From: a virus | IMG/VR virus record: IMGVR_UViG_3300028794_000001 | Span: 1-55,660 of that record | DNA length: 55,660 nt | Direction: 5' to 3' (one strand) | Shown here: positions 128-54,033 of the stretch, one piece after another | Numbering within the stretch: the first letter of the stretch is position 1 | How the letters are laid out: each line of letters begins with the position of its first letter | Position numbers and translations under genes: made by a program | The notes under the pieces: model-generated | What the model was told of the DNA's origin: nothing | Database searches by the model: none | Seen by the model: only the letters and a program-made list of their open reading frames with translations

Positions 128-825
128 TTGCCAGCCGGGTTGTCCCCGCCCGCGCCCAAGGGCTTGTGCATCTGGTCGGGCGCATGGGGGTTGGCCGCGG
201 TCCGGTCGTCTGGGTTCTTGACCGGCTCGCCGGCCTTGGGGGCAGCAACCGCGGGGTCGCCCTCGGGCTTGGGCGCGGACGGATCACCCGGCTTGACGGT
301 TGGGTCTTTCGCCTGCGCCGCGGGGTCGTCGGGCGGCGGGTCAGTAGCGGGGTCCGCGCCGGGCTCGGCGGGGGGTTTGGCGTAGCGCCCTTCCTCGCCC
401 GGCTTCGGGGCTTCGCCCTCGCCCGGCGCGCCCTCAGGTCCGCCCTCGGGGTCAAGCCCGACCATCTCCGGCTTCAGCTTGTCGGCGTCGTCCGCGCACA
501 GCTCGAAGCCCTCGCGCGTCTCCTCATATGGGATCAGCTCAATGATCCGCGCCGCCATGTCGTCCGCGCGCCACATCACCTCCGCCGTGATCCAGTCGAT
601 CACATTCAGAGAGGGCTCGGCGGTAAGCCGCTTGTCCACGCCGAAGATTCCGAGCCCGCTGACGATGTTGTCCCATGAGTCCCCGCGGATGGGGCTGTCC
701 ACCCGGACGACTTCACCGGTTCGGGGGGTGACATTGCGTCGCAGTAGCGCAGTGGACTTGCCGGCCTCTGGCGCGGAAGCTGCTTTACTGTTAATCAATT
801 TGGCTTGGATGTTCTTGATCCCCAT
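1..825 (-). CDS. Portal protein, N-terminal part. Full gene = 825..128 joined to 55660..54034, about 774 aa
   Basis: The minus frame is open from ATG 825-823 to base 1 (275 codons) and is in phase with ORF 54034..55650 through the 127-nt overlap. The product MGIKNIQ...GDSWDNIVSGLGIFGVDKR...RIIELIPYEETREGFEL looks like a DUF1073-type portal N-terminus. The ORF is absent from the track because it runs off the window edge. Start 825 versus TTG 798 is unresolved. Confidence 0.8.
   Translation of the reverse strand, partial: MGIKNIQAKLINSKAASAPEAGKSTALLRRNVTPRTGEVVRVDSPIRGDSWDNIVSGLGIFGVDKRLTAEPSLNVIDWITAEVMWRADDMAARIIELIPYEETREGFELCADDADKLKPEMVGLDPEGGPEGAPGEGEAPKPGEEGRYAKPPAEPGADPATDPPPDDPAAQAKDPTVKPGDPSAPKPEGDPAVAAPKAGEPVKNPDDRTAANPHAPDQMHKPLGAGGDNPAGKPAEMPNGLQPDPMMSGAPRQPDPNAPENKGPGGALEIKGKEA
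784..794 (+). promoter_or_regulatory. Weak copy of the class I motif (cTTTACTGTTAA)
   Basis: It is one T short of the TTTTACTGT core shared by six intergenic copies. It lies inside the minus-strand portal ORF, about 180 nt upstream of ATG 973. Confidence 0.3.
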
Positions 826-851
826 GAGGCGAAAGGTACACCATCGGGGAA

Positions 852-873
852 TGGACTGGACGCGCGCACTCCA
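852..873. promoter_or_regulatory. Class II upstream element, copy a (TGGAC TGGAC GCGCGCACTCCA)
   Basis: The 17-mer TGGACGCGCGCACTCCA (857-873, arms TGGA/TCCA) recurs identically at 25283-25299 and 52155-52171. Confidence 0.6.
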
Positions 874-943
874 CATGCCCTGGAATCGGACGGTCTTGGC
901 GGTTTGCTTCGACGTAAAGGTCCTGAACTAGGTGAGGGACGGT

Positions 944-959
944 TGGCCCCTGTCCTGCA
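944..959 (+). promoter_or_regulatory. Sigma54-type -24/-12 element TGGCCC-CTGTC-CTGCA
   Basis: The GG and GC dinucleotides are spaced as in the consensus TGGCAC-N5-TTGCW. The block TGCAATAGATACCGAAC-ATG parallels the copies at 25201-25215 and 52064-52078. Confidence 0.5.
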
Positions 960-972
960 ATAGATACCGAAC

Positions 973-1101
973 ATGAACCCGACCATCCGGAACCTCGAAG
1001 CGCAAATCGCCGCGACCCCGGTCAGGGATCAAGCGTCCCTGCGCGCCCTCTACACCAAGCTGTCCCACGTCTACGCGGAGCTGCTCCGCCCTACCAGGTG
1101 A
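973..1101 (+). CDS. Small hypothetical protein (42 aa)
   Basis: ATG 973, TGA 1099-1101, GC-rich third positions. Product: MNPTIRNLEAQIAATPVRDQASLRALYTKLSHVYAELLRPTR. It is below the ORF-track size cutoff. Confidence 0.5.
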   Translation: MNPTIRNLEAQIAATPVRDQASLRALYTKLSHVYAELLRPTR

Positions 1102-2884: not shown

Positions 2885-3316
2885 GTGATCCCGTTCCTCA
2901 AAACCCGCTGGTCAAAGCTCTCCCCAGGCATGCGCGTTACCTTCGCGGCCGTCATCTTCATCTGTATGATCCTGCCCGGCGGCTTCGTGCTGCTCGCTGC
3001 AAGGGCTGCGCTCGGACACGCGCGATCCCGGCGAGGCCAGGTAGATGCCCTGGCACTGGGCGCACTCGCGATGCTGGCTGTCGCGGGACTCGCGGTCGTC
3101 GGCTTCGCACAGGCGAACGTCGTCCTCTACGACTTGCGCTACCAAGAGGCGCGAGCCGAGCGCTGCGAAGCTCGCGCCTTGGGCTCAGATTCGGATGAGC
3201 TAGCTCCCCTGGTCCCCCCGCCCGAAGAACAGCCCAAGCCGGAACCCGCGCCCGCCCCGCCGCGCGAGCCCGATCCGCTCGTACCAGATCCACCGAAGCC
3301 CGAGGACAACCCCTAG
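2885..3316 (+). CDS. Membrane protein with Pro-rich tail
   Basis: Two hydrophobic segments (VTFAAVIFICMILPGGFVLLAA, ALGALAMLAVAGLAVVGFA), then PPPEEQPKPEPAPAPP. Its stop overlaps the convergent stop (CTAG). Confidence 0.6.
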   Translation: MIPFLKTRWSKLSPGMRVTFAAVIFICMILPGGFVLLAARAALGHARSRRGQVDALALGALAMLAVAGLAVVGFAQANVVLYDLRYQEARAERCEARALGSDSDELAPLVPPPEEQPKPEPAPAPPREPDPLVPDPPKPEDNP

Positions 3317-4176
3317 CCTCGACGCGCCACCCGGCGCAGCCGCTGCGCCTCGTAGGCGTCGACCCGCGAGGCTTGCGCCGAAGCCCGATGCACAGCGATG
3401 GGGATGACCTGCCCGCTTCCGACCAGCTGCCCTGAGACTCCCAACTGCCCGAGCCCTTCGCACGTCGGGGGCTCAGTGGTGCCGGTGCCCATCAGCGCCG
3501 ATGCAGCGCCTGCGAGCGCGCCCAGTCCGCCAACCGCGGGCGGACCATAGCCCTCGCTCCCGCCCGGAAGCCCTGCGAAGCCTGCCCCCATCTGCTCGAG
3601 CTGCACAAAGCCGCCCGGCGCTGGACTTGCGAGGACGCCCGCCCCAACAGCACCCCGCGCGCCCGAACCAATGAGCGAAGGGTCTGGAGCGCTCAAAGCC
3701 CCCATTCCCGCCGACCCGCGCATTCCCGCGCCCGCGATCCCCGCCGTCCCTGCGAAGCTCCCGGCCCCAGCTGCCCCGCGCGTCCCCGTCCCCGCGAGCG
3801 CTCCGCTTCCGGTCAAGACACTCGACCCCGCAACACCTTGCGCACCTACACCTACTAAGGATCCTTGTCCGGCCATCGAACCGGCGCCCGCCGCCCCGTG
3901 CGCGCCCGCGCCGATGAGCGCGCCTGAAGTGCCCGTAAGAGCACCTCCGCCAGCCTCCCCCCGCGCGCCCGCTCCGGATAGCGCGCCAGCTCCCGCCAAC
4001 GTCCCCGCTCCAGCTGCACCGGATGCTCCCGCCCCAGACAGCGCACTCGAGCCGCTCAATGAGGCCGAAGCGCTGACCCCGTGCGCGCCCACGCCCGCCA
4101 GCGGCGCAGTGCCCACGAGCGCGCCGTCCCCGATCACGGATGAGGCCTCGACCAGCGAGCGAAGCGCGACCAGCAT
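3313..4176 (-). CDS. Gly/Ala-rich protein with about 8 tandem ~20-aa repeats
   Basis: Repeats such as AGASGAAGAGTLAGAGALSG, AGARGEAGGGALTGTSGALIG and AGAHGAAGAGSMAGQGSLVG. ATG 4176 overlaps the upstream TGA by 1 nt. Confidence 0.65.
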   Translation of the reverse strand: MLVALRSLVEASSVIGDGALVGTAPLAGVGAHGVSASASLSGSSALSGAGASGAAGAGTLAGAGALSGAGARGEAGGGALTGTSGALIGAGAHGAAGAGSMAGQGSLVGVGAQGVAGSSVLTGSGALAGTGTRGAAGAGSFAGTAGIAGAGMRGSAGMGALSAPDPSLIGSGARGAVGAGVLASPAPGGFVQLEQMGAGFAGLPGGSEGYGPPAVGGLGALAGAASALMGTGTTEPPTCEGLGQLGVSGQLVGSGQVIPIAVHRASAQASRVDAYEAQRLRRVARRG

Positions 4177-5115: not shown

Positions 5116-6678
5116 TTAGCGCCCGTCCTCCGCGCGCAATGTGCCCATCCGCCGGGCGAAGTCCAAGGCGCTGTTCGTCCAGATGCACTCGAGCTGCGAG
5201 CCGGCGTCGACGTCATCGTCGTGCGTTGCATTCGGGAACTGGGCGAACTCGTCGATCACATCCGACGTCCAAGCGTGGTGCTCGGGCAGGAACCAATGCC
5301 CGCTCTGCACCACCGGCTCCATGACCTCAGCACGCGCTTCCTTGCCGCTGTTCGACACCTCGTTCGGCACAGCGAGCACGCCGTGGTACTCGGCCTCCAG
5401 CGCCTCGATGATCGCGTCGCCGTTCGCCTTCGCCTCGATCCAGATGCGGCGGATCTTCGGCCAGCGCAGCTTGAGCGTCTTGATCCAGTCCACAGTCTTC
5501 ATGTACCCGACCGGCCCACTGAAGCGGTCGAGCACGTAGCGATCCATGCCCTTGCGTCCGACAACCCAGCAGACCGCGCGGTCCGCGTCCTTGCGCTTCT
5601 TGAAGTTCGAGTCGACGCTGAGGACGACCTCGTCGAAGCGGAACTTGTCGAGGTTCAGCACGGCCGAAGGGCTCGCGTCCTTGGTCGCGCAGCCATCCGG
5701 GCGCGCAAAGCCTACGCTCCCATCGGGCCGCCAGAAGCGCCACCACTCACGCTTGAAGCGGTTGCCCTCCGCCGCGCTGGGGCGCTGCTGGTAAAGGCTG
5801 ATCCATACACGCTCGAGCACACTTTTACGGATACGCTTCAGGGCCTCGTTGTCGTAGCGCTCGGGGTGGAGCGCGTCGCCTGCATTGCGCAGCGGGCGTT
5901 GGTCGATGTCCGAGACCTCATCCTTTTCAGCCACCGCGGGAAAGTTCAGCACGCGATAGGTCTCGCCCTCGCCGGTCTTCATGCGCGCGAGGATCTTCCC
6001 CGCGAGATCATTCTCATGCCAGCGCGTGAGGATGATCAGCACGCCCCCGCCGGGCATGAGGCGCGTGTACGCGGTGGAGCTGAACCAGTCCCAGACCTTC
6101 TCCTGGTACACCTCAGAGTTTGCCTGCTCGGCGTCCTTGACCGGGTCGTCGATGATCAGCACGTGCGCGCCCATGCCTGTGATTCCTCCGCCCACGCCCG
6201 CGCTGCGGTACACGCCCCCTAGACGCCTCCCGTCAGCGCCGCAGGTCTCGAAGATGTCGCTGTTCCGCAGCGGCTGCCCGTACGCCACCGTGCGCACGTT
6301 CGAGCCGTTCAAGCAGGTGTTCGGGAAGATCGGCTTGTAGCTGGGCGAGTCGATCACGTTCTGCACGTCGCGGTTCATGCGCGAGGCGAGGTCGTCCCCG
6401 TAGCTCGCGCCGATGAACTGCAGCGAAGGCGTCTTGCCCAGCGCCCACGCGGGGAAGCGCCTCGATACGATCTCGCTCTTGCCGTGGCGCGGGGGTGCAA
6501 AGAGCATGAGCCGCGGGGAGCGCTTGGCGATCACCTCCGCGTGGAACCATTCGAGAGCGCTGCAGACCTCGCGGTGAAACCAATTCGAGGTGTACTCGGG
6601 CATGGTGCGGTGGATGAACTCGAGCAAGTCGCGTCGCGCAAGCTCGCACTCCAAACTTTCAATTGAAGGTTCACGCAC
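5116..6678 (-). CDS. terL: Terminase large subunit
   Basis: Walker A FAPPRHGKSE, Walker B VLIIDDPV, coupling motif TRWHENDL, and a C-terminal nuclease-like region (VLSVDSNFK...HDDDVDA). Confidence 0.92.
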   Translation of the reverse strand: MREPSIESLECELARRDLLEFIHRTMPEYTSNWFHREVCSALEWFHAEVIAKRSPRLMLFAPPRHGKSEIVSRRFPAWALGKTPSLQFIGASYGDDLASRMNRDVQNVIDSPSYKPIFPNTCLNGSNVRTVAYGQPLRNSDIFETCGADGRRLGGVYRSAGVGGGITGMGAHVLIIDDPVKDAEQANSEVYQEKVWDWFSSTAYTRLMPGGGVLIILTRWHENDLAGKILARMKTGEGETYRVLNFPAVAEKDEVSDIDQRPLRNAGDALHPERYDNEALKRIRKSVLERVWISLYQQRPSAAEGNRFKREWWRFWRPDGSVGFARPDGCATKDASPSAVLNLDKFRFDEVVLSVDSNFKKRKDADRAVCWVVGRKGMDRYVLDRFSGPVGYMKTVDWIKTLKLRWPKIRRIWIEAKANGDAIIEALEAEYHGVLAVPNEVSNSGKEARAEVMEPVVQSGHWFLPEHHAWTSDVIDEFAQFPNATHDDDVDAGSQLECIWTNSALDFARRMGTLRAEDGR

Positions 6679-7421: not shown

Positions 7422-7913
7422 ATGAAGAACCCGATCCTGATGCTGAAGCGTGAGTCTTCCCGAGCATTCCGCGTGGTGGTTGTTGGGGATACCTACCAGG
7501 GCCCCAAGCGCGGCATCCACTACCTCCCGAGCCAGCCTAGGAGGGGCCTCAGCAGGGCCAAGGCGCTCGCCCTGGCCTCTGAATGGACTCCGGCTAGGGT
7601 GGTCTCTTTCTGCGCCAAGCGGGAGGGCTCGTATGTCTACCCCTCCGTGCGCCCGCTCTTATCTCCCGTCACGAAGGTGATGAGAGGTGGGTTTAAGTTC
7701 GAGCGCTCGGCTGTTCCTACCATCGACACTAGGAAAAACGAGCGCTTAGCTGCTGTTCCTACTGCCGCTGACCTCATCATGAAGCGTCGCGAGGCTCTCC
7801 GAACGCTCAGCGAAATCGACGCAAAACTCGAAAAAATGCTGGAATTACGTGCGGTTAAGGCCATACAACGGGGGATGGCGGCGCCCTTGAACAACAGCAC
7901 GACACTACAATGA
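7422..7913 (+). CDS. Hypothetical early protein (163 aa)
   Basis: ATG 7422 follows AAAGGTG. Third-position GC falls toward the 3-prime end, and two iteron copies lie inside the ORF (AVPT repeats). Confidence 0.45.
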   Translation: MKNPILMLKRESSRAFRVVVVGDTYQGPKRGIHYLPSQPRRGLSRAKALALASEWTPARVVSFCAKREGSYVYPSVRPLLSPVTKVMRGGFKFERSAVPTIDTRKNERLAAVPTAADLIMKRREALRTLSEIDAKLEKMLELRAVKAIQRGMAAPLNNSTTLQ

Positions 7914-8168: not shown

Positions 8169-8561
8169 GTGCTGATGAGCGTGAGTCTCGACGAAGTGAG
8201 CTACGAAGTGCTGGAGGGGTTCGGAGAGTCATACGACGCCCCGTTAAGCGCGGTCGCGGCCGGTCTGATCCGGGCCGCGCTTCGGGCGGGGCTTCAGCCG
8301 GAGAGCAACCCCCTGCCCATGGGGCGTCCGCGTTGTGACCCTAAGTCGGTCGTGTACCGACAGATCGCCAAGGAGCCTCGCGACTATGCGGAGCTGTGCG
8401 GCGCCACGGATCTTACAGCTGAGGCTACAGCACAGGCCGTGGCCGAGCTGCTCACCGAACAGCGAATCGAGATGGACGCTCAAGGCGTCTGCAGCACCGT
8501 GCCGAAGCTGATCCCCAAGCGGCGGATCTTCGCCCAGTGCAGCTACGTTGATGCAGATTGA
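8169..8561 (+). CDS. Hypothetical, possible DNA-binding protein (130 aa)
   Basis: GTG 8169 (or ATG 8175) follows AAAAGGGG. It is the first gene after the iteron region and precedes the primase-helicase. Function is guessed from position. Confidence 0.55.
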   Translation: MLMSVSLDEVSYEVLEGFGESYDAPLSAVAAGLIRAALRAGLQPESNPLPMGRPRCDPKSVVYRQIAKEPRDYAELCGATDLTAEATAQAVAELLTEQRIEMDAQGVCSTVPKLIPKRRIFAQCSYVDAD

Positions 8562-8638: not shown

Positions 8639-11251
8639 TTGCGCGTTGCGTTCTACCATTCGAACAGAGACAACGTCCCGAAAAGCGCTGACCTCACATG
8701 GGGGCAGCTCGCAGAGGTTCTAACCCAGCATCAGATGACCCCCTGCGCGCCCTGTGGGGGGCATGACTGCGCGCTCAAGTTCGGCCGCGCATGGTCGCCC
8801 GCGGATCTGGACGTGCGACGTACTGAGCCCAATGTGCGCAGCATCGGCGCGCTGGTGCTGGACTTCGACGGGCTGAGCGAGACCCTCGCGCGTGACGCCT
8901 TGCAGCGCCTCAGCGCCTTCACGAACATCGTCTACACCACCCATTCGCACGCGGTGATGCAGCTCGAGCAGCCGCCGCGCTTCAGCTTCCGTGCAGTCAT
9001 TCAGCTGAGCCGATCCGTAGCGGCGGCGGACTGGCGCGGGTTCCTCGCGCGTGCAGTGACATACCTTGGTGTCGCGGCGTTCCCAGGCATCGCCGAGTGC
9101 GGCGATCTCTCACGCCTCTACTTCTTGCCGACCGCGTCAGTCGGCTCGCGCCCCGTCGCAGCGGCGCACGATGGCGTCGCGATGAACGTCGATGCGATCA
9201 TGGCGTTGCCCGCGCCTCCCATCGCGACCACAGCCCCCCGCGCGGTCGCAGCGGTGAACGTCCCGGGGATCGTCTGGCAGGACCCCGCTACGGTGGACCT
9301 GGAGGCCCTGCGTAAGGCCCTGCGCTCGGTCAGCAATGAGACCTCGAAGCCTTTGGCACAGGCAATCCTGAAGGGCGAGGCGGTGGGCTGGAGCGACGCG
9401 CAGCGCCGCCAGGGCGCGCCGCAGCTGGGCAGGGATCACGGCCTCCAGCGCGCGAGCAGCTTGGTGGCTTGGGCTTGCCCCCTCGGCACCCCGCTGCCCG
9501 CGCTATTCGAGTTGCTTCGCCCCACCTTCAATGGGATGGATCTCGCGCCCGAGGGCCCGGACTACTGGCGCGCGGAGATCGACGACATGCTGCGCCGCGC
9601 GGTGGCGCGCAAGGCTGAGGCCGAAGCTCGTGAGAATCTCGAGCACCAGCGGTTACTAGACGTCACCTTCGGTCCAGGGTTCGGCCCGGACAACAGCTTC
9701 AAGCCGGTGGGCAGTACGCCCAGCGCAGCGGGCGGCACGACGGGAAGCGTGCCTGTACCCGCGTTCGCGCCCCTTGGGGGCGCACCGGCCCTTTCGCCCG
9801 CCCCTGCGCGGGACTTGCTTGATGAGCTGTGCGCTCAGTACGCGGGGGCGGGCCCGCCGGTCCCTACCCCGGCCGTCGCTAGCCTCCCCGCGGCGCCGGT
9901 CGAATCAGAAGGGGACGCCAGCTGGACCAAGGCGCTGCTGTACAAGACCGACAAGAACGGCAATCAGACCGAGCTGCGCGGGTGCCCCGCCAATGCGAGC
10001 ACGATTCTGAGGCACGACACGCACTGGCGCGGGATGGTCCGCCGCAATGAGTTCACCGGAGCGGCGGAGATTTGGGGCGGACCTATCTTCCAGCAACAGC
10101 CTCCCAAGCCCCTGCCGGTGACCGACGAGCACGTGACGAAGATCGCCATGTGGCTGCAGCAACGTCCCGAGATAGCGATGAGGTTCGACATCAGCACCCA
10201 GTCCCTTTACGAGGTGATCAACGCGGTAGCGAGCGACCACAGCTACCACCCGATTCGCGACTATTGCGATGAGGTGGAGTGGGACGGCGCCCCCCGCCTT
10301 GACAGCTGGCTGGAGACCTACCTAGGGGCGAAGCTTTTAGATGCTGCGGGCGAGGACATTACCGCGTACGTGCGCGCCGCCGCCGCGAAATGGCTGATCG
10401 CCGCCGTGGCACGCGTCTACGAGCCTGGCTGCAAGGTCCAGAACGTATTGATCCTGGAAGGTGAGCAGGGGCTTCGTAAGAGCACAGCCTTCGAGGTATT
10501 GGCCTCGCGCCCATTCTTCACGGACCAAACGATGGATATCGGCCACAAGGACACCTCCATTGCCACGACGAAGAACTGGATTGTCGAGCTGGCCGAGCTG
10601 GACGCCTTCCGCAAGAGCGAGCACACCCAAGCCAAGGCATTCTTCACGCGCGATTGGGAGTCCTACCGGCCGCCTTACGGAAGGCACGAGATCAAGCGCC
10701 CGCGCGTCTGCATCTTCGGGGGCACCAGCAACCGCGATGACTACCTGACAGACCCTACAGGCAACAGGCGCTACTGGCCGGTGGTCTGTACGAAGGTCGA
10801 CGTGGCTGCGCTGGAACGCGACCGTGATCAGCTTTGGGCTGAGGCAGTGGCGCGCTACCAGGCGGGCAAGGCGGAGCGCAGCGATTGCCTGTGGTGGCTG
10901 ACGAAGGCGGAGGAGGAGATCGCGTTCCGTGCGGCGGAGGAGCGCGTCGCCCCTGACGATTGGGAGGACAAGATCCTGCGTTGGTGGGCGCAGGTTGCTG
11001 GACGCCCCATGGATGTGCGGATCGGCACGGTGCTGGAAATCGCTTTGGGGTTCACCGCGGACAAGATGCACCATGGGGTAAGCACCCGCGCGGGGGCGTG
11101 CCTGAAGAAGCTGGGCTTCACGCGGAAGCGGAAGCGCGAAGCAGGTCGCCTGTTGTGGTACTACGAGCCCGGGGGGGCGCTGGCAAACGTGCAAACGGCT
11201 ATACCCGCTGGGGTCATGGGGCATCTGTCTATGCTGCCCGGGGGGGCTTGA
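8639..11251 (+). CDS. Primase-polymerase fused to a VirE/D5-type P-loop helicase
   Basis: N-terminus: AEP-like LVLDFDG and YTTHSH. C-terminus: VLILEGEQGLRKST (Walker A) and IFGGTSNRDDYLTDPTGNRRYWPV, typical of the VirE family. TTG start is uncertain. Confidence 0.88.
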   Translation: MRVAFYHSNRDNVPKSADLTWGQLAEVLTQHQMTPCAPCGGHDCALKFGRAWSPADLDVRRTEPNVRSIGALVLDFDGLSETLARDALQRLSAFTNIVYTTHSHAVMQLEQPPRFSFRAVIQLSRSVAAADWRGFLARAVTYLGVAAFPGIAECGDLSRLYFLPTASVGSRPVAAAHDGVAMNVDAIMALPAPPIATTAPRAVAAVNVPGIVWQDPATVDLEALRKALRSVSNETSKPLAQAILKGEAVGWSDAQRRQGAPQLGRDHGLQRASSLVAWACPLGTPLPALFELLRPTFNGMDLAPEGPDYWRAEIDDMLRRAVARKAEAEARENLEHQRLLDVTFGPGFGPDNSFKPVGSTPSAAGGTTGSVPVPAFAPLGGAPALSPAPARDLLDELCAQYAGAGPPVPTPAVASLPAAPVESEGDASWTKALLYKTDKNGNQTELRGCPANASTILRHDTHWRGMVRRNEFTGAAEIWGGPIFQQQPPKPLPVTDEHVTKIAMWLQQRPEIAMRFDISTQSLYEVINAVASDHSYHPIRDYCDEVEWDGAPRLDSWLETYLGAKLLDAAGEDITAYVRAAAAKWLIAAVARVYEPGCKVQNVLILEGEQGLRKSTAFEVLASRPFFTDQTMDIGHKDTSIATTKNWIVELAELDAFRKSEHTQAKAFFTRDWESYRPPYGRHEIKRPRVCIFGGTSNRDDYLTDPTGNRRYWPVVCTKVDVAALERDRDQLWAEAVARYQAGKAERSDCLWWLTKAEEEIAFRAAEERVAPDDWEDKILRWWAQVAGRPMDVRIGTVLEIALGFTADKMHHGVSTRAGACLKKLGFTRKRKREAGRLLWYYEPGGALANVQTAIPAGVMGHLSMLPGGA

Positions 11252-11276
11252 CAGGTTCGGTCGTTTTACTGTTTAG
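11248..11276 (+). promoter_or_regulatory. Class I motif: TTGACA-N13-TACTGT within TTTTACTGTTTAG
   Basis: Intergenic, 32 nt upstream of ATG 11305. The TTGA contains the primase stop codon. Confidence 0.5.
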
Positions 11277-15046: not shown

Positions 15047-17029
15047 ATGGCCGACCTGTTCGACGATCTGGCGGCAAAGGCCGCGCAAGCTTACGGGGGC
15101 GCGATTGACCTCGCGACTGCGGTCAGCTCGCCGACCATCGCGCTCCCGCCGAACAGGATCTTGATGGAAGGGAAGTACGCCGTCAGGGACAGCGAAGACC
15201 TGCGGAGGATCGAAGCGCTTCCAAGGCGCTCTGCGACGGTAGCCCCGGAGTCGAAGCACTGGCTGGAGCAAGTCGTCGAGTACATGACCGCGTCGCTCCG
15301 GATCGACAATCCGGCGTGTCAGTGCGCGGCGCTGGGGGCTGTGAAGAAAGACGGATCCCCGGACTGCATTCTGCGTCTGCTCCCCGTGCAGGCGGCGTAC
15401 CTCTATGAGGCGATGCTGATTGGCGGGATTCTCGGTCCAATCGGTGTAGGGCACGGCAAGACGGGGATCGACATCCTGCTCCCGATGGTCATCCCGGGAT
15501 GCAAGGTTGCGGTGTTGCTGCTCCCACCGCGCCTGGTGCCTCAGCTGAAGCACGATTTCAAGCTCTGGTCCCAGCACTTCAGGACACCGAACCTCGCCGG
15601 ATGCCCTCCCTTTCGCGCGGACGGTCGCCCCGTGCTCGAGCTGTTGCCCTACTCCATGCTGTCGACGAAAAGCGGCGCAGGCAAGCTGCTGGAGCTGCGC
15701 CCCGACGTGCTGATGATGGACGAATGCCACAACGCGAAGAAGCCGAAGCCGGGCGCGCGCCCGTCCGCGCGATGGGCGCGAATCGAGGACTTCAAGCGCG
15801 CCTACCCCGCTTGCCGCCACTACCGCCACAGTGGCACGGTCACCACGAAGAGCGTCTACGACTACCAGCACCATTCGGAGGACTGCTTGGGCGATCGCAG
15901 CATCCTCCCGCGCGACCCCGATGCGATGGCCGAATGGGCTGCGGCCCTAGATCCAGTCGACGACCCGGCACCCATCGGTGCGCTTCGCCGCCTGTGCCAG
16001 ATCGGCGAGAACGCTCGGCAGGGCTTCCGGAGGCGCCTGGTCGAGACCGCGGGGGTGGTGGCGACCGAGGAAAGCGCCATCGGGAATTCGCTGTTTTTCA
16101 CTGAACGCAAGGTATCGATCCCGAAAGTCATCGGTGACTTGATCGCGAAAACCCGTCTGAGCAACGAACGCCCGGACGGTGAGCCCTTTGCCGACGGGCT
16201 GCGCAAGGCGGCGTGCCTGCGCGAGCTGAGCGCCGGCTTCTATTACGTATGGTACTTCCCACCCATTGACGGCGTTCCGCAACGCGCTTCCGTGATCGAT
16301 CTCTGGCTGGAGCGACGCAAGGCTTACAACAAAGAACTGTACGCCCGGTTGCTGGCGCCGCAGCCCGGAATGGATTCGATGCTGCTCTGTTGGGAGGCTG
16401 CGACGCGCTGGCACGAGGGCTACGTTTGGATCGATGTGCACGGTCACCGGCACACTGAGCCTGCATATTCGACGAGGGGGCCTTACCCGGTCTGGGCGTC
16501 ACAGCACTTCGTCGGGTGGCGCGAGGTCAAAGACACGGTCGTAAAGCAGACCGTTCCAAAATGGGTGGACGATTTTCTGGTCGCGGACGCCCTCGTGTGG
16601 GCCCGCGCGGAGCCCGGGATCGTCTGGTTCGATCACCGCGCCTTTGGGCTGCGCATGCGCGAGCTTGCCCCGGACCTCGGTTTCTACGGCGGCGGGGACA
16701 AGGACGACGAGCGCATGATCGAGGAGCGTGCTAAGGTGTCGATCATCTGCTCAATTGATTCGCATGGTGAAGGTAAGAAACTTCAAAAGTTCTATCGGTC
16801 GTTGATGGGAAATTTCCCCAAAAACAAAACGCTTGAGCAGGTGATCGGCCGTACGCATCGGCAGGGGCAGCACGCCGACGAGGTGGAGATCTGCTGGTAC
16901 CGCCACACCGACGAATATTGTAAATTCTTTGACAACGCGTATGAGCAGGCGCGGTATGTCGACGAGACCCAGGCGAAGAGCGTCGGGGCTTCACAGAAAC
17001 TCCTGCTCGGATCGAAGGACTGGCGATGA
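15047..17029 (+). CDS. SNF2/DEAD-like superfamily 2 helicase
   Basis: Motif I GVGHGKTG, motif II LMMDECHN, motif VI QVIGRTHRQGQ. Confidence 0.85.
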   Translation: MADLFDDLAAKAAQAYGGAIDLATAVSSPTIALPPNRILMEGKYAVRDSEDLRRIEALPRRSATVAPESKHWLEQVVEYMTASLRIDNPACQCAALGAVKKDGSPDCILRLLPVQAAYLYEAMLIGGILGPIGVGHGKTGIDILLPMVIPGCKVAVLLLPPRLVPQLKHDFKLWSQHFRTPNLAGCPPFRADGRPVLELLPYSMLSTKSGAGKLLELRPDVLMMDECHNAKKPKPGARPSARWARIEDFKRAYPACRHYRHSGTVTTKSVYDYQHHSEDCLGDRSILPRDPDAMAEWAAALDPVDDPAPIGALRRLCQIGENARQGFRRRLVETAGVVATEESAIGNSLFFTERKVSIPKVIGDLIAKTRLSNERPDGEPFADGLRKAACLRELSAGFYYVWYFPPIDGVPQRASVIDLWLERRKAYNKELYARLLAPQPGMDSMLLCWEAATRWHEGYVWIDVHGHRHTEPAYSTRGPYPVWASQHFVGWREVKDTVVKQTVPKWVDDFLVADALVWARAEPGIVWFDHRAFGLRMRELAPDLGFYGGGDKDDERMIEERAKVSIICSIDSHGEGKKLQKFYRSLMGNFPKNKTLEQVIGRTHRQGQHADEVEICWYRHTDEYCKFFDNAYEQARYVDETQAKSVGASQKLLLGSKDWR

Positions 17030-17349
17030 AGGCACTTCCCGGAATGAGTTTGAAGGCGTACCGCGAGGAAGGCGACCGCGCGTTTCTGGGCGTGGTGCTG
17101 AAGGAGGCGGGCGGGAATATCGCCAAGGCCGCGCGACTGGCGGGGCTTTCGCGCACGGGCTTATACCGGCTGATGAGCAAGTATGGGATCGAAGTCGCTG
17201 AGAAAGGAGCCGAACCCATCGTTCCGGTCCTTGGAGAGCCGATGGTTTGCGAGCACGCAAACGAAGCCTCTGACATCTGCGAATGCGATGAGGAGTGCTA
17301 CTGCCGGAAGGGGCTGTGCTACATGCGCAGCGCTGAGGCGCGCGCGTGA
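17026..17349 (+). CDS. Stand-alone NtrC/Fis-type HTH (HTH_8-like) DNA-binding protein with Cys-rich tail
   Basis: LKEAGGNIAKAARLAGLSRTGLYRLMSKYGIE matches the pattern of the C-terminal HTH of Fis and sigma54 activators (..GN...AA..LG..R.TLYRK...YGI). No AAA+ domain. Tail: CEHANEASDICECDEECYCRKGLC. Confidence 0.75.
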   Translation: MKALPGMSLKAYREEGDRAFLGVVLKEAGGNIAKAARLAGLSRTGLYRLMSKYGIEVAEKGAEPIVPVLGEPMVCEHANEASDICECDEECYCRKGLCYMRSAEARA

Positions 17350-19206: not shown

Positions 19207-19527
19207 ATGAACACGATGCTCGAGCTTGTCGAAGACGCTTTGCTGAGCGCGCTTGAAGAGGCGGGTCCGAAGCTCCCTAAGGATTTCTCGATTCGGATTC
19301 CTGACAAGGCTTACGCCGCACTCGCGCACGCTGCACCGGCGCCGCATATGATCGCTGGCGGGTACACCATCAGGATCTACCCAGACAGCGCTCTCACATT
19401 GTTCGAAGACATGACGCTTGCCGAATGGATCGAGCACACCACAGCTACGGCGCTGAACGACGCGCCCGAAGACGACTTTCGACGAAGGGCCGCCGCAGCG
19501 CTCCGGAAGGTCAGGACCGGCAAGTGA
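19207..19527 (+). CDS. Hypothetical protein (106 aa)
   Basis: I moved the start to ATG 19207, after GGAG. Product: MNTMLELVEDALLSALEEAG... Confidence 0.6.
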   Translation: MNTMLELVEDALLSALEEAGPKLPKDFSIRIPDKAYAALAHAAPAPHMIAGGYTIRIYPDSALTLFEDMTLAEWIEHTTATALNDAPEDDFRRRAAAALRKVRTGK

Positions 19528-21740
19528 CCCCCGAGCGAAACTACTGGGCATTCGACCTAGAAACCGACCTCATTATGCCCGGGTTGCTGGCGCCCCCGCC
19601 GGTCTGCGCGTCGGTCTCGGACGCCAAGGGGGCTAAGAAGATCCTCGCCGATGCTGAGATCCTTCCATGGGTCGCGCACGAGTTGGACCGATCGATCTGG
19701 ATCGGCGCCAATATCGCCTACGACTTCGGAGTGATCGGCGCCTACTCCCCCTCCCTCGTGCGCTCGATCTTCAAGGCCTACAGGGAAGGCCGGGTCTTCG
19801 ACATTCAGATTGCACAGGCCCTCGATGCCATCGCCAAGGGCACCCTGTTCAAGGACCCGCGCACCGGGGGCGGGCTGAAGGACCCGACGACAGGCAAAAG
19901 CAAAAACCGCTACTCCTTGTCCATCGTGACGGACCTGGTACTTGGGCGAAAGGACGCCAAGGCAAATGACTGGGCGCGCTTGCGCTACTCGCTCTTCCGC
20001 GGCGTACCGCTCGCCGGCTGGACCGAGCATGCGCGGGCGCTCGGCTGCGTTGACCCCGAGGGCGTTACTCAGTACCCGCTGGATGATGCAGGCAATACGA
20101 TGAGCTGTGCGCTCGGGCAGCGCGGACACGAAAACCTTCAGGAAATGGCCGCGCAGTCCTACACCGCTTGGTGCATGCACCTTGGCTCGATGTGGGGTCG
20201 CCGAACGGATCCTGTAGCGGTTGCGAATCTGAAGACGATTATCGAAGCCAAGCACGCAAAGGCTGTGATCGATTTCAAGGCCTCCGGGCTGCTCGACGAG
20301 AACGGCGACGAAGACCAGATCGTCAAGAAGCGGATGGTCGCGACTGCGTACGGCGCAACGGGCATTTGCCCGGCGTGCGTCGGAAGCGGAAAGGTGATCA
20401 GCGAGAAGAGCGGCAACCCGATTCAGTGCAAGGTCTGCAGCGCGACGGGGCTCAACATTGCTTCCGCACCCACGCTCAAGCTGACGGACACCGGGGGCGT
20501 CTGCGCGGATCGCGATGCTCTTTCGGAGTCTGGCGATGATCTGCTAGAGAGCTACGCCGACGTTTCGAACATCAACAAGCTTCGCAACACCTACCTTCCT
20601 TTTCTTGAGCTTGGAACGAAGCAACCGGTCAACGTTCAACCTAATGTGATCGTCGAGAACGGGCGTACCTCGTATGAGGGGCTGATCCAGCTCATCCCGC
20701 GACAGGGAGGGATTCGCGAGTGCTTCCTTCCGCGCGAGGGTTGGCTTTACTGCTCGACCGATTACCCCGCCCTGGAAATGACGACGCTCGCACAGGTCTG
20801 CATGTGGATCGTGGGCTGGTCGCAGCTCCAACAGGCGATTGACGCCAAGCTGGATTTGCACAGCGCCTTCGCGGCGAAGCTGACCGGGAAGAGCTATGAC
20901 GAGTTCTACGCGCTGATCCTCGCGAAGGACAAATGGGCGAAGGGCATTCGCCAAGCCTGCAAGGCCGCTAATTTCGGCTTCCCCGGGTACATGGGCGCAG
21001 CCCGATTCGTTGCCTCCAAGCGCGCGCAGGAGAACTTACGGATCTGCATCTCATTGGGACAAGCCCCGAAGTGCGAGACCTGCCAAGGCGTCGAGGGTAT
21101 CGATTGCAAACGCTGCTACGGGCGCGGATTCCTTTGCGCTCTGGTCAAGGTTACCGAGTGGAACAACCGGAAGACCACCCCGACGTGTAAGCACTGCCTC
21201 GAGCTTGCCGAGGACCTGAAAAAGGGGTGGTTTGCCCAGTGGTCCGAGATGAAGTCCTATTTCGATTTCATCAAAAAGCAATGCGCGAGTCCCCTCGGGG
21301 GGAAGCTGCGTCAGTTCGTCAGCAACCGGTGGCGCGGCAACCTCGACGTCATGAATGGCGCGAACACGCTTTTCTCCGGCCTTGCCGCGGATCTGGCGAA
21401 ATACGCGCTGCGGCTGATCAGCGACGAAGCGTACACCGACGAGAACAGCGCACTTTGGGAGACACGTCCGCTCGAGCTGATCCACGACGAGGTGTTCAGC
21501 GAGATGCCCGAAGCCCGCGCACATGCGGCGGCTTGGCGCCAGGCGGAGCTGTGTGACCAAGCTCTGGCGCGCTATTGCCCCGACGTGAAGCCAAAGAATG
21601 TGGAGCCCGCGTTGATGCGGCGGTGGTCGAAAGACGCCGAGCGGGTCGATGGGCCGGACGGGAAGTTGATCCCCTGGACGCCGAAGCGGAAGCCGGGCGA
21701 GGTGTTCATGTGGGAACCGGGCTACACGGCCGCAGCTTGA
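19524..21740 (+). CDS. Family A DNA polymerase with 3-prime-5-prime exonuclease domain and Zn-finger insertions
   Basis: I moved the start to GTG 19524 (GTGA overlap). Exo I FDLETD, motif B RQACKAANFGFPGYMG, motif C LIHDEVFSE. Insertions: CPACVGSG...CKVCSATG and CETCQG...CKRCYGRG. Confidence 0.92.
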   Translation: MTPERNYWAFDLETDLIMPGLLAPPPVCASVSDAKGAKKILADAEILPWVAHELDRSIWIGANIAYDFGVIGAYSPSLVRSIFKAYREGRVFDIQIAQALDAIAKGTLFKDPRTGGGLKDPTTGKSKNRYSLSIVTDLVLGRKDAKANDWARLRYSLFRGVPLAGWTEHARALGCVDPEGVTQYPLDDAGNTMSCALGQRGHENLQEMAAQSYTAWCMHLGSMWGRRTDPVAVANLKTIIEAKHAKAVIDFKASGLLDENGDEDQIVKKRMVATAYGATGICPACVGSGKVISEKSGNPIQCKVCSATGLNIASAPTLKLTDTGGVCADRDALSESGDDLLESYADVSNINKLRNTYLPFLELGTKQPVNVQPNVIVENGRTSYEGLIQLIPRQGGIRECFLPREGWLYCSTDYPALEMTTLAQVCMWIVGWSQLQQAIDAKLDLHSAFAAKLTGKSYDEFYALILAKDKWAKGIRQACKAANFGFPGYMGAARFVASKRAQENLRICISLGQAPKCETCQGVEGIDCKRCYGRGFLCALVKVTEWNNRKTTPTCKHCLELAEDLKKGWFAQWSEMKSYFDFIKKQCASPLGGKLRQFVSNRWRGNLDVMNGANTLFSGLAADLAKYALRLISDEAYTDENSALWETRPLELIHDEVFSEMPEARAHAAAWRQAELCDQALARYCPDVKPKNVEPALMRRWSKDAERVDGPDGKLIPWTPKRKPGEVFMWEPGYTAAA

Positions 21741-21765
21741 CCGGCGGTTTCATTTTACTGTTAAA
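21737..21765 (+). promoter_or_regulatory. Class I motif: TTGACC-N13-TACTGT within TTTTACTGTTAAA
   Basis: Intergenic, 15 nt before ATG 21777 (with AGGAGG between). The TTGA contains the polymerase stop codon. Confidence 0.5.
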
Positions 21766-24714: not shown

Positions 24715-24737
24715 CCAGCGACAGTTTTACTGTCAAG
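24704..24737 (+). promoter_or_regulatory. Class I motif: TTGACG-N18-TACTGT within TTTTACTGTCAAG
   Basis: TACTGT ends 6 nt before ATG 24740, which fits a leaderless transcript. Confidence 0.5.
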
Positions 24738-24739
24738 GC

Positions 24740-24979
24740 ATGAAGACCAAGAGCCAAAAGGAGAAACTCACGGAGGCGCTCGAAACGCTTCGCGCGACGC
24801 TTCGGGTGAATGCCCCGAAGCAGTGGACCGCGAAGCAACTTGCCAAGCGGCTGCGCTGCACCCGTGCGACGATCTACAACCGTCTCGAGGCGCTGCACGA
24901 CACGGGGTTCAAGCTGAAATGGGGTGAGAAGCGCGATGGTGCGCGCGGGCCTCTCAGTGCGACGGTCACCGCAGGCTGA
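24740..24979 (+). CDS. Winged-helix DNA-binding protein (79 aa)
   Basis: I moved the start to ATG 24740. WTAKQLAKRLRCTRATIYNRLEALHDTGFKL looks like an HTH_11-type motif. Confidence 0.6.
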   Translation: MKTKSQKEKLTEALETLRATLRVNAPKQWTAKQLAKRLRCTRATIYNRLEALHDTGFKLKWGEKRDGARGPLSATVTAG

Positions 24980-25187
24980 GTTCCAGCGGGTCCCAGATCT
25001 TGCTCGCCATCGCCGCGTCGGCCAACCGCAGCGCCTTCGTTTCAGCAAGCTCCAGGTCGGCGCGCAACGCATCGAACCGGCGCAGGGTGTCTGCAGTCGC
25101 GCGGGTCGAGAAGAGCGCGTGGAGGGCGTCGCGAAGCTCGAACACCTTCGCCTGTGCTGCTTTGGCTTCTGCGTTGATCTCGTTCAT
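24966..25187 (-). CDS. Coiled-coil small protein (73 aa), antisense to the surrounding block
   Basis: I moved the start to ATG 25187 (MNEINAEAKAAQAKVFELRDAL...). It converges on 24740..24979 and overlaps it by 14 bp. Confidence 0.5.
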   Translation of the reverse strand: MNEINAEAKAAQAKVFELRDALHALFSTRATADTLRRFDALRADLELAETKALRLADAAMASKIWDPLELSLR

Positions 25188-25200
25188 GCCCTCTTCTATA

Positions 25201-25215
25201 GCAAAGCCTAGGCCG
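25201..25215 (-). promoter_or_regulatory. Sigma54-type -24/-12 element CGGCCT-AGGCT-TTGC(T)
   Basis: GG-N10-GC register. TTGCTATAGAAGAGGGC-ATG 25187 parallels copies a and c. Confidence 0.5.
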
Positions 25216-25267: not shown

Positions 25268-25299
25268 TGGACTGGACTGGACTGGACGCGCGCACTCCA
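25268..25299. promoter_or_regulatory. Class II upstream element, copy b (four TGGAC pentamers + GCGCGCACTCCA)
   Basis: TGGACTGGACTGGACTGGACGCGCGCACTCCA. The identical 17-mer is at 25283-25299. Confidence 0.6.
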
Positions 25300-25335
25300 T
25301 CTGTCCTGATTCAGGACGAAGCGCAGGGGCGCCAG

Positions 25336-25599
25336 ATGAACGAAAGCAAGCAGATGGTCGACGGCACGCCGAGTGCTCGTCTCGCGGACATGAATCCATT
25401 GGTTCGAGCAGCACGCGTGCAGCATCTTCAGGCAGACATGGCGCTTCAGCTTGCGATCCGCAAGGGGCACATCGATGAGGTCGCGCTGCTCGCCCAGCAC
25501 AAAACCGAGTGCATCGATCAGCTGATCGAGATCATGAACGCCGTCGAGCCCGGGTGCTTCGATCTTCCGGAGATGTTCGAGATCGTGGAGGTTCCGTGA
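25336..25599 (+). CDS. Hypothetical protein (87 aa)
   Basis: I moved the start to ATG 25336 (MNESKQMVDGTPSARL...). The stop overlaps GTG 25596. Confidence 0.55.
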   Translation: MNESKQMVDGTPSARLADMNPLVRAARVQHLQADMALQLAIRKGHIDEVALLAQHKTECIDQLIEIMNAVEPGCFDLPEMFEIVEVP

Positions 25600-26303
25600 T
25601 CATCGGGATCGTAGGCAAGAGCGGGAGCGGCAAGGACACAGCGGCGGGCTTCGTACCGGGTGCCAAACGCTTCAGCTTCGCGGACCCGCTGAAGAAGTTC
25701 GCGGGCGAGGTCTTCGACTGGAGCGAGGAGACGCTTTACGGATCCAGTGAGCTGCGCAACGTGCCGGACAAGCGCTATCCGCGCGGACCTTGCACGGCTT
25801 GCTTCGGCGGGCCGCACAGTTACGCCTACGGCCCCTCCGGGAAGTGCAGCCGCTGCGAAGGCGCGGGCATCGAGTACCTCACCCCCCGCTATGCGCTGCA
25901 GACCCTCGGCACCGAGTGGGGGCGCAGCTGCTTCGCGGACACGTGGGCGGTCCTCGGGGTTCGCAAGGCAAAGGAGTGGCGTGAGCAAGTTACGCACGAG
26001 TACGGCTGCCCGCGCGATGGCGAGTGGGTCGAATGGGCTTGCGATCACAGGTGCCCTTCAATTGCGGTTTTCTCGGATTGTCGCTTCGTCAACGAGGCGA
26101 CGGCGATCAGGGCCGCGGGCGGGGTCGTTTGGCGGATCGTTCGTCCGGGCGTTGGTGCAGCGAGTAGCCACCCGTCTGAAACGGAACAGGATTCACCGGA
26201 GATGGAGCGGCTGATCGATTGGACCGTCAAAAATACAGGGTCGCTCGATGTTTTGAAGAGTCGCGTGCTCGAAGCATTCGCAGCCTGTAGGATGACCCCG
26301 TGA
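25596..26303 (+). CDS. Deoxynucleoside monophosphate kinase with Zn-finger insertion
   Basis: I moved the start to GTG 25596. P-loop IIGIVGKSGSGKDT, FADPLKKFA, YALQTLGTEWGR, VFSDCRFVNE. Insertion: CTACFGG...CSRCEGAG. Confidence 0.8.
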   Translation: MIIGIVGKSGSGKDTAAGFVPGAKRFSFADPLKKFAGEVFDWSEETLYGSSELRNVPDKRYPRGPCTACFGGPHSYAYGPSGKCSRCEGAGIEYLTPRYALQTLGTEWGRSCFADTWAVLGVRKAKEWREQVTHEYGCPRDGEWVEWACDHRCPSIAVFSDCRFVNEATAIRAAGGVVWRIVRPGVGAASSHPSETEQDSPEMERLIDWTVKNTGSLDVLKSRVLEAFAACRMTP

Positions 26304-28480: not shown

Positions 28481-28514
28481 TAAACAGTAAAACGACGGGC
28501 TCGACGGGTGTCAA
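28481..28514 (-). promoter_or_regulatory. Class I motif: TTGACA-N19-TACTGT within TTTTACTGTTTA
   Basis: Read on the minus strand in the 63-bp gap upstream of ATG 28455 (28 nt from the motif). Confidence 0.5.
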
Positions 28515-51891: not shown

Positions 51892-52050
51892 TTAGAACCC
51901 CTGTGCCTTCAGCCAGTCGGAAAGGGAGGCGGTCTCACCCTTGGCTTTCGCCGCATACCAGGCCGACACCCGCGCCTGCTGGGCCCGCTCTTCGGTACCG
52001 CGGGGGGCCACGTTCTTCCCGGTGCGCTTCTTCTTCTCGGTCTCAGTCAT
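51892..52050 (-). CDS. Small basic protein (52 aa)
   Basis: ATG 52050, TAA 51892-51894. Product: MTETEKKKRTGKNVAPRGTEERAQQARVSAWYAAKAKGETASLSDWLKAQGF. Not in the ORF track. Confidence 0.5.
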   Translation of the reverse strand: MTETEKKKRTGKNVAPRGTEERAQQARVSAWYAAKAKGETASLSDWLKAQGF

Positions 52051-52063
52051 GCCCGTATCTATA

Positions 52064-52078
52064 GCAACCTCGGGGCCA
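52064..52078 (-). promoter_or_regulatory. Sigma54-type -24/-12 element TGGCCC-CGAGG-TTGC(T)
   Basis: The best match of the three to TGGCAC-N5-TTGCW. 13 nt separate the GC from ATG 52050. Confidence 0.55.
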
Positions 52079-52149: not shown

Positions 52150-52171
52150 TGGATTGGACGCGCGCACTCCA
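52150..52171. promoter_or_regulatory. Class II upstream element, copy c (TGGAT TGGAC GCGCGCACTCCA)
   Basis: The identical 17-mer is at 52155-52171. It lies between the Mu-F-like gene stop (52188) and the sigma54-like element. Confidence 0.6.
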
Positions 52172-52187
52172 CATGTCCGAAGTTCGG

Positions 52188-54008: not shown

Positions 54009-54033
54009 TAAACAGTAAAACGGCCGGGGTCAA
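54008..54033 (-). promoter_or_regulatory. Class I motif: TTGACC-N10-TACTGT within TTTTACTGTTTAA
   Basis: Read on the minus strand in the 25-bp gap between the portal stop (54034) and ATG 54008. Confidence 0.5.

Follow-up and report, generated by a model that had tools for sequence, protein, structure and literature searches.

What switches on the small open reading frame (ORF) that begins at position 973 of the IMG/VR virus record IMGVR_UViG_3300028794_000001, and why does the inverted-repeat element in front of it recur at two other places in the same genome? The record is a phage genome of 55,660 nucleotides (nt), analyzed here at its full length (the window), with a GC content of ~64%. A sequence-only reading of it had proposed that three loci, here called cassettes a, b, and c, pair a promoter of the -24/-12 (sigma-54) type with an identical upstream element of 17 nt (the 17-mer). 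We find that the window carries four such promoter-like elements (Pa in cassette a, Pb-minus and Pb-plus in b, and Pc in c; Table 1), each placed at a nearly fixed distance before an ATG, and that both the -24/-12 motif and the upstream element are kept in related phages. These features make it probable that the four promoters depend on sigma-54, and they suggest, with somewhat less confidence, that the block containing the 17-mer is the binding site of an activator.

Results

Promoter-like elements in the window

We scored candidate sites against the 11 bases of the sigma-54 consensus TGGCAC-N5-TTGCW. The three elements proposed earlier read as they had been quoted and share the GG-N10-GC register, with 14, 13, and 13 nt between GC and ATG in cassettes a, b, and c. 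The fourth, Pb-plus, was newly found 63 nt from the 17-mer on its other side, so that cassette b is a divergent promoter pair with one common upstream site. The spacing expected of sigma-54 promoters, GG and GC doublets 10 base pairs (bp) apart within the consensus, is present in the window sites and in those of the relatives described below.

The comparison with shuffled sequence that the sequence-only reading had suggested gave a divided answer. The loose consensus (at most three mismatches) is not enriched, with 181 matches in the window versus ~200 expected. In contrast, a composite feature, defined as at least 9 of 11 matches that include GG and GC, followed by an ATG at 13-14 nt, occurs three times in the window versus 0.25 times in dinucleotide shuffles. 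Ten window sites reach 9 of 11 matches; three of these have an ATG at 13-14 nt, and all three lie within 90 bp of a 17-mer. With the ATG constraint, then, the sites are more frequent than chance and occupy promoter-like positions: those in the window, and those that we inspected in relatives, are intergenic and stand at called or in-frame gene starts. Rfam families and terminators were searched at the cassettes, and none was found.

All four window promoters are followed by ATG as the start codon. Transcription from these sites would be expected to start 11-14 nt past the GC, that is, on the ATG or 1-2 nt before it, so that the mRNAs would be leaderless or nearly leaderless.

One further window site, at 769-784 on the + strand (TGGCGC-GGAAG-CTGCT, 9 of 11), has no ATG at 13-14 nt. 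Placed antisense inside the portal gene at its 5' end, it is ~75 nt away from the cassette a 17-mer and overlaps a copy (784-791) of the motif TTTACTGT discussed below; it could be a chance match or a non-coding start.

The upstream element

The 17-mer, TGGACGCGCGCACTCCA, is present in three exact copies, all on the + strand, at 857-873, 25283-25299, and 52155-52171, precisely where the sequence-only reading had placed them; a search for degenerate further copies in the window found none. Chance would give ~1e-5 exact copies of a 17-mer in 55.7 kb, a number that three copies exceed by far. Each copy is preceded by one to three extra pentamers, as also described before: one TGGAC in cassette a, three TGGAC in b (25268-25282), and one TGGAT in c. 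The palindromy ascribed to the 17-mer, however, is weak, consisting of 4-bp arms (TGGA/TCCA) and an off-centre GCGCGC, and the conserved block is longer than 17 nt. Cassettes a (852-900) and c (52150-52198) share 49 nt at 80% identity on the + strand, which suggests that the upstream element spread by duplication; in cassette c the shared 49 nt extend into the 3' end of the MuF gene.

The distance of 89-98 bp given earlier between the two parts of each cassette fits only when measured to the GC. From edge to edge, the 17-mer and the -24 element are 63-76 bp apart, and the distance from the centre of the 17-mer to the promoter GG is 72-86 bp (80 bp in cassette a, where the element lies between the start of the portal gene and Pa). 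The absolute orientation of the element is identical in all window copies and in both copies of the relative L003; it thus faces away from Pa, faces toward Pc, and sits between Pb-minus and Pb-plus. This agrees with the earlier remark that its orientation relative to transcription differs between cassette a and cassettes b and c, and such behavior matches that expected of an orientation-independent enhancer. An enhancer would be a repeated or dyad site ~70-150 bp upstream that is used in either orientation, and the element is found at 65-86 bp in the window and relatives, in both orientations, and in cassette b in common to two promoters. Among the activator motifs that we can name, none matches the candidate element.

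A second type of symmetry was seen next to the element. A perfect dyad, GTCCTGA-T-TCAGGAC (25303-25317), flanks the element in cassette b; cassette c has CCGAAGTTCGG (52177-52187, arms CCGAA/TTCGG), and the relative L006 has GTCCGAAGTTCGGAC at the same place (3134-3148, arms GTCCGAA/TTCGGAC). The arms differ among the three yet remain complementary, and no such dyad is present in cassette a or in L003. The flanking dyad may be a hairpin or a second protein site.

Conservation in related phages

Relatives were found as contigs from other samples through homologues of the MuF-like protein (63-74% identity). The close relatives (L003/L004, L005, L006/L007, L012, and L013) share the gene order of the window: terminase, a block of small genes on the opposite strand, portal, MuF, further small genes, protease, decoration protein, and capsid. 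The search for the cassette in related genomes, which the sequence-only reading had recommended, was successful: TGGCAC or TGGCAA-N5-yTGCW stands 13-14 nt before an ATG, with TGGAG-N7-GTCCAGTCCA upstream. Sites directly after the MuF gene are listed in Table 1 for four relatives, and further sites lie in the small-gene block (three in L003, one in L007, and a second site in L005). The relatives' sites match 9-10 of the 11 consensus bases. All 12 non-redundant sites have GG and TGC, the latter always followed by A or T; because the scan required GG and GC, only the T of TGC is independent. In a scan that required an ATG, all 12 sites have it 13-14 nt past the GC, too close for a leader or a ribosome-binding site. 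The composite feature again exceeds dinucleotide shuffles, with 4 versus 0.05 in L003, 2 versus 0.015 in L005, and 2 versus 0.01 in L007. Judged from these comparisons, the match to TGGCAC-N5-TTGCW appears to be specific, and it improves in the relatives.

The upstream element is conserved across the relatives as GGACA-N2-TGGAG-N7-GTCCAGTCCA. The element of cassette c is kept in L012 (TGGAGTACGCACGTCCAGTCCA), L003 (TGGAGCGCGCCTGTCCAGTCCA), L005 (TGGATAGCGCCCGTCCAGTCCA), and, in a looser version, L006, and it is preceded by GGACA in all four. At the post-MuF sites of these four relatives the distance from element centre to GG is ~65-81 bp. Within the element the half-sites TGGAG and GTCCAGTCCA stay the same around a variable spacer (TGCGCGC, TACGCAC, CGCGCCT, and AGCGCCC, in a small sample of about five genomes); such conserved half-sites with a free spacer are what an enhancer would show across related genomes. 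When the five post-MuF regions are aligned, only the upstream block, TGG...TGC.A, and the ATG are conserved, and the DNA between them is unalignable. Two of the L003 promoters, neighbours at 7609 (-) and 7273 (-), have in common ATCTACCCATCYTCYCTGGASCGT, ~36-38 nt upstream of the -24 element; this block contains TGGA(C/G) and is possibly a paralogous activator site.

In the equivalent small-gene block, the more distant L151 (two sites) and L153 (one site) carry TGGTAT or TGGCCC-N5-TTGCTCTATAG-N7-8-ATG. The dyad in front of these sites, TATCGG-N5-6-CCGATA, is a different one. The GC contents of L151 and L153, 47% and 57%, make other hosts probable, and the same promoter design behind a different upstream dyad fits a universal sigma factor with lineage-specific activator sites. 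Broader scans added little. Those of IMG/VR with the MuF protein, the 17-mer, or extended patterns returned nothing related, the 17-mer giving two matches (L001 and L002). A metagenome-wide scan with TGGAKNNCGCNNGTCCARTCCA gave 53 matches, about the number predicted by chance and mostly coding-like, none of which had a -24/-12 element and start codon in the expected register.

Candidate activators and DNA-binding proteins

Sigma-54 promoters are described as requiring an AAA+ enhancer-binding protein (PMC4641369). The phage does encode a stand-alone helix-turn-helix protein of the Fis/NtrC type, as the sequence-only reading had pointed out, with a match to Pfam HTH_8 (Table 1). This protein resembles the C-terminal DNA-binding domains of FleQ, NtrX, GlrR, and PrsR. 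A search for homologues in an indexed collection retrieved only the protein itself and no close homologues, and an exhaustive search retrieved mostly small stand-alone HTH_8 proteins (up to ~250 amino acids) and a few activator C-termini. In the available early-region fragments of relatives, no HTH_8 homologue follows the helicase gene. A role for the HTH_8 protein as the binder of the upstream element is unsupported by these searches and seems improbable. The HTH_11 protein encoded beside cassette b is a second candidate regulator; its gene is convergent with, and overlaps the end of, the small gene behind Pb-minus, and a homologue is located at the end of L135.

Other proteins were considered and rejected. 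The 660-amino-acid protein encoded upstream of the HTH_8 gene (15047-17029, +) could have been one part of a split activator; it belongs to a widespread superfamily 2 (SF2) helicase family and has no GxxxxGK[ST] P-loop. The family is a large one of uncharacterised phage SF2 helicases, some members of which have DEAD/ResIII matches, and the homologue P0126 (L135, 3363-6434) is interrupted by an intein with a LAGLIDADG endonuclease. A 662-amino-acid protein was rejected as a polymerase, its homologue having a faint PD-(D/E)XK nuclease match and a cysteine cluster. The sequence FTGA in the VapE primase (~10052) lies outside the ATPase domain and was treated as chance.

Other promoters and genes of the phage

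The window also contains a clearly different class of promoters. The motif TTTACTGT occurs in seven copies versus 0.26 expected, and six of the seven form the -10 part of TTGAC(A/C)-N17-TACTGT directly upstream of a gene; the copy at 784 has no clear -35 box. At the 24726 site, TACTGT is followed after 6 nt by ATG 24740, and the HTH_11 gene behind it may also be leaderless. A standard sigma-70 consensus scan finds no site at the three cassettes. The phage thus has two promoter types, of which GG-N10-GC is the second.

The ORFs behind the -24/-12 elements show coding signal. That of Pa heads a + strand block of small genes to ~3316, between the portal and terminase genes, in which no functions were recognisable. 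Two short units toward the end of the early block begin with Pb-minus and Pb-plus. The ORF of Pc comes first in a - strand block that contains the genes for the head protease, the decoration protein, the major capsid protein, and the tail. Where the Pa block and the terminase block converge lies a Gly/Ala/Ser-rich ORF (3313-4176, -; …GAGALSGAGARGEAGGGALTG…) with weak coding signal and no family match, which is a candidate gene only.

The ends of the window are an exact duplication of 127 nt (1-127 = 55534-55660), which indicates a circular or permuted molecule whose unit is 55,533 bp long. Its tail genes are of the myovirus type, and its structural proteins resemble those of phages that infect Gram-negative bacteria. 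Searches for a more specific host signal gave none: megablast of 6 kb against isolated phages found no match; the portal, capsid, and terminase proteins gave, in tblastn, only relatives of at most 40% identity from many hosts, allowing no host call; a GTDB genome scan with a MuF alignment gave only distant matches spread over many phyla; cluster names did not indicate a host; and no tRNA genes were found in the window.

Table 1. Positions of the promoter-like elements, upstream elements, and genes of the phage, with the corresponding sites of its relatives
Feature	Position	Strand	Details
Pa	944-959	+	TGGCCC-CTGTC-CTGCA; GG 945-946, GC 957-958; 9/11; ATG 973, 14 nt past GC
Pb-minus	25200-25215	-	CGGCCT-AGGCT-TTGCT; 8/11; ATG 25187, 13 nt past GC
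Pb-plus	25362-25377	+	CGGCAC-GCCGA-GTGCT; 9/11; ATG 25390, 13 nt past GC
Pc	52063-52078	-	TGGCCC-CGAGG-TTGCT; 10/11, best in window; ATG 52050, 13 nt past GC
Upstream element, cassette a	852-873		TGGAC (852-856) + 17-mer; - strand reading TGGAGTGCGCGCGTCCAGTCCA
Upstream element, cassette b	25268-25299		(TGGAC)x4 then GCGCGCACTCCA; between two divergent -24/-12 promoters
Upstream element, cassette c	52150-52171		TGGAT (52150-52154) + 17-mer; 17 nt past stop codon of MuF-like gene
First ORF behind Pa	973-1101	+	42 amino acids, MNPTIRNLEAQ...; third-position GC 0.85; in-frame stop directly upstream
ORF behind Pb-minus	24966-25187	-	73 amino acids; lone - strand gene within + strand early block
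ORF behind Pb-plus	25390-25599	+	69 amino acids, MNPLVRAAR...
First ORF behind Pc	51892-52050	-	52 amino acids
Post-MuF site, L003			TGGCAC-cggag-CTGCA; ATG at 13 nt
Post-MuF site, L005			TGGCAC-ctgtt-CTGCA; ATG at 13 nt
Post-MuF site, L006			TGGCAA-atgaa-TTGCT; ATG at 13 nt
Post-MuF site, L012			TGGTAC-cggaa-CTGCA; ATG at 14 nt
Promoter-like sites, L151	~8330-8400 and 7520-7540	-	
Promoter-like site, L153	7800-7835		
HTH_8 protein (stand-alone, Fis/NtrC-type)	17026-17349	+	107 amino acids; Pfam HTH_8 E = 2.9e-8
HTH_11 protein	24740-24979	+	79 amino acids; E = 1.8e-8; beside cassette b
TTTACTGT copies	1857-1864, 11265-11272, 21754-21761, 24726-24733	+	
TTTACTGT copies	28484-28491, 54012-54019	-	
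TTTACTGT copy	784-791	+	
Large terminase	5116-6678	-	
VapE-type primase	8639-11251	+	
Family-A DNA polymerase	19425-21740	+	
dNMP (deoxynucleoside monophosphate) kinase	25596-26303	+	behind the 69-amino-acid ORF of Pb-plus
Major capsid	47372-48307	-	Pfam families agree in syntenic relatives
Head protease	49250-50356	-	Pfam families agree in syntenic relatives
MuF-like head-morphogenesis protein	52188-53168	-	
Portal	ATG 825 down to 1, then 55533 down to 54034	-	774-codon ORF across junction

Alternative explanations

Several observations weigh against the dependence of these promoters on sigma-54. The window sites deviate from the consensus at -21/-20 (TGGCCC, CGGCCT), and Pb-minus matches just 8 of 11 bases. 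Site selection in the relatives required GG, GC, and ATG, so that the presence of these features there is partly by construction, a concern that the shuffle test addresses. The more distant relatives L008 and L009 are without the sites, and 80 still more distant MuF-bearing IMG/VR loci (1.06 Mb) hold 8 sites versus 5.9 expected, i.e., no overall enrichment. The window contains no AAA+ activator, as the sequence-only reading had stated, since it gives no Sigma54_activat match and has no GAFTGA in six frames; nor does a GAFTGA motif occur in any fetched locus of the relatives. For this essential step we can therefore only infer an activator, most simply one of the host. Finally, a fixed, leaderless spacing has, to our knowledge, not been described for sigma-54 promoters.

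An A/T-rich stretch after the -12 element offers one other way to read the promoters of the window. TGCWATAGA is common to cassettes a, b, and c, and it could be an extended -10 box (TGC-TATAGA) of sigma-70-family promoters or a T4-late-like TATAGATA at -13 to -6, with leaderless mRNAs as the result and the 17-mer as the operator of a phage repressor or activator. We take TATAGATA to be one base off the T4 late consensus TATAAATA and to lie at the right distance from the ATG, and the sigma-70-type promoter in front of ATG 24740 gives a precedent for leaderless mRNA in the phage itself. The stretch (ATAGATAC, 'ATAGATA') is, however, not kept: the relatives carry ATAACTGT, ATGTCTAT, GGAGCTTC, or AAACTAAA in its place, while GG and TGC are present at every site, and with this the main support for a -10 box or a T4-late-like box is gone. 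The -10 pattern TAnnnT is found in none of the three reading frames, and no conserved A/T-rich -10 element, be it TAnnnT or TATAAATA, lies 6-8 nt from the start. Given also that the sigma-70 scan is empty at the cassettes and that the true sigma-70 class of this phage looks very different, we consider promoters of this family very unlikely here. It is less easy to dismiss, but still unlikely, that GG-N10-GC is the promoter of a system specified by the phage (a sigma-like factor, a specificity-changing protein, or a phage polymerase) and the 17-mer its activator site. The phage encodes no activator ATPase and many proteins without assigned function, and TATAG follows TTGC in the window as well as in L151 and L153, which are distant; this is more than the sigma-54 consensus calls for. 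A common motif is also shared by nine promoters of the Pseudomonas phage YuA, four of which, reported earlier, had no activity in vivo (PMC10914365), and this inactivity suggests a need for additional, possibly phage-encoded, factors (PMC10914365). Against such a system stand the specific match to TGGCAC-N5-TTGCW, which gets better in the relatives, and the absence of the TATAG tail from the closest of them. Moreover, the protein scans revealed neither an RNA polymerase domain nor a sigma domain, and the two large proteins of unknown function (660 and 662 amino acids) appear to be replication or repair enzymes.

The upstream element could also be unrelated to activation, serving instead in replication, packaging, or recombination or as a polar DNA-binding site, and owe its nearness to the promoters to duplicated intergenic DNA. 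Its constant absolute orientation in the three window copies and the two of L003 would fit this, as would the 49 nt shared by cassettes a and c, which suggest duplication, and the variable number of GTCCA units (2, 4, 2), as in slippage-prone repeats. Against it stand the distance to the -24/-12 element, which is held in the window and, despite unalignable DNA between, in four relatives; the position of the element midway between the divergent promoters of cassette b; half-sites that are kept around a spacer that varies between phages, as in a protein-binding site; and a different dyad at the same place in distant phages. We regard a role outside activation as quite unlikely. A more elaborate version of activation, to which we would give only a small chance, is that the late genes and a small-gene block are run through host sigma-54 from lineage-specific enhancers (TGGAG-N7-(GTCCA)n here, TATCGG-N5-6-CCGATA in L151 and L153), which are read by a phage DNA-binding adaptor (e.g., the HTH_8 protein). 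The adaptor would hijack a host AAA+ activator lacking a site of its own there or open the complex in an undescribed way, the transcripts being obligatorily leaderless. Overall, the combination of a -24/-12 promoter and an upstream activator site, as proposed in the sequence-only reading, is borne out by the related genomes and appears better supported than its rivals.

Discussion

From the motifs, their spacing, and their conservation, we infer the following mechanism. Pa, Pb-minus, Pb-plus, and Pc would be recognised by host RNA polymerase carrying sigma-54 (RpoN). An activator, probably of the host, would bind the common upstream site GGACA-N2-TGGAG-N7-(GTCCA)n, which in the window contains the exact 17-mer, and would act from it in either orientation and, in cassette b, on both sides simultaneously. 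The sigma-54 holoenzyme would stay closed until remodelled by the AAA+ protein, so that the units concerned would be silent until then: the head and tail block (Pc), the small-gene block between terminase and portal (Pa), and the two small divergent units of cassette b. Transcripts would begin 11-14 nt past the GC, at the ATG itself or 1-2 nt ahead of it.

It is instructive to compare this arrangement with known systems. Classical sigma-54 promoters with an upstream activator sequence (glnAp2/NtrC, nifH/NifA) have the same GG and GC doublets 10 bp apart without -35/-10 boxes. The repeated or dyad element of the phage, ~90-115 bp upstream of the expected start, in either orientation, and serving two divergent promoters in cassette b, is likewise of the classical kind. 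The phage differs in having no cognate AAA+ activator gene nearby or anywhere, and in its ATG, fixed 13-14 nt past the GC without room for a 5' leader or ribosome-binding site, whereas cellular sigma-54 genes normally have leaders. T4 late promoters (TATAAATA, served by gp55/gp33 and the sliding clamp) are also a late class of phage promoters without a -35 box that is activated from a distance, and the window motif TATAGATA is similar to theirs. This resemblance, however, is confined to the present genome and lost in its relatives, a search for homologues of gp55/gp33 found none, and the conserved bases here are GG and TGC of the -24/-12 type. Leaderless mRNAs (e.g., lambda cI from PRM) are common in Actinobacteria, Deinococcus, and some alphaproteobacteria, and they too have the promoter directly next to the start codon. 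In the cases known to us the promoters belong to the sigma-70 family and have the -10 box ~7 nt from the ATG; in the phage the neighbouring element is instead a -12 box. Leaderless mRNAs require a 5'-AUG (PMC3616915), which fits the ATG found at all four window promoters.

The closest parallel is phage YuA, whose transcription depends on sigma-70 and sigma-54 (PMC10914365). In its GenBank record (NC_010116), three promoters of the morphogenesis region are labelled '-24/-12 consensus', and one of these directly follows the head-morphogenesis (MuF-like) gene. The use of sigma-54 by a phage, if rare, is thus not new, and YuA qualifies the remark of the sequence-only reading that it knew of no described phage with its own sigma-54 promoter-plus-enhancer set; no conserved upstream element is annotated in YuA. 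Both are virulent-type phages of ~56-59 kb and 64% GC, without an RNA polymerase of their own, that mix sigma-70 with sigma-54-type promoters, and both have sigma-54-type sites in the morphogenesis region, one right after the MuF-like gene. Nevertheless, a tblastn comparison of all 68 predicted proteins with YuA yielded no match below E = 0.02 and thus no indication of common descent with Yuavirus, and YuA is a siphovirus, unlike the present phage with its myovirus-type tail genes. In our own reading of YuA, ~19 nt with a GAGGA ribosome-binding site separate a candidate site, TGGCGG-gtgat-CCGCC, from the ATG of gp55, which is thus not leaderless. In the literature searched, neither a phage-encoded activator nor leaderless genes driven by sigma-54 were reported. 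The apparent novelty lies in the combination of a fixed, seemingly leaderless spacing with a defined enhancer.

YuA has been the sole documented phage with a sigma-54 strategy, and the same strategy would now be seen in an unrelated, uncultured lineage, with the addition of a delimited enhancer, a divergent promoter pair on one enhancer, and start codons at the expected transcript start. Because sigma-54 promoters are fully off until an ATP-driven activator acts, they would give the phage a very tight late switch for the genes of its head and tail and for its accessory genes, and this switch would depend on an activator from the host (or on an unknown one from the phage). If this is true, the cassettes would be a compact natural enhancer-promoter module for sigma-54 and an example of leaderless translation from sigma-54 transcripts, and the host factors involved, rpoN and one activator, would predict host range and routes to resistance for this group of phages.

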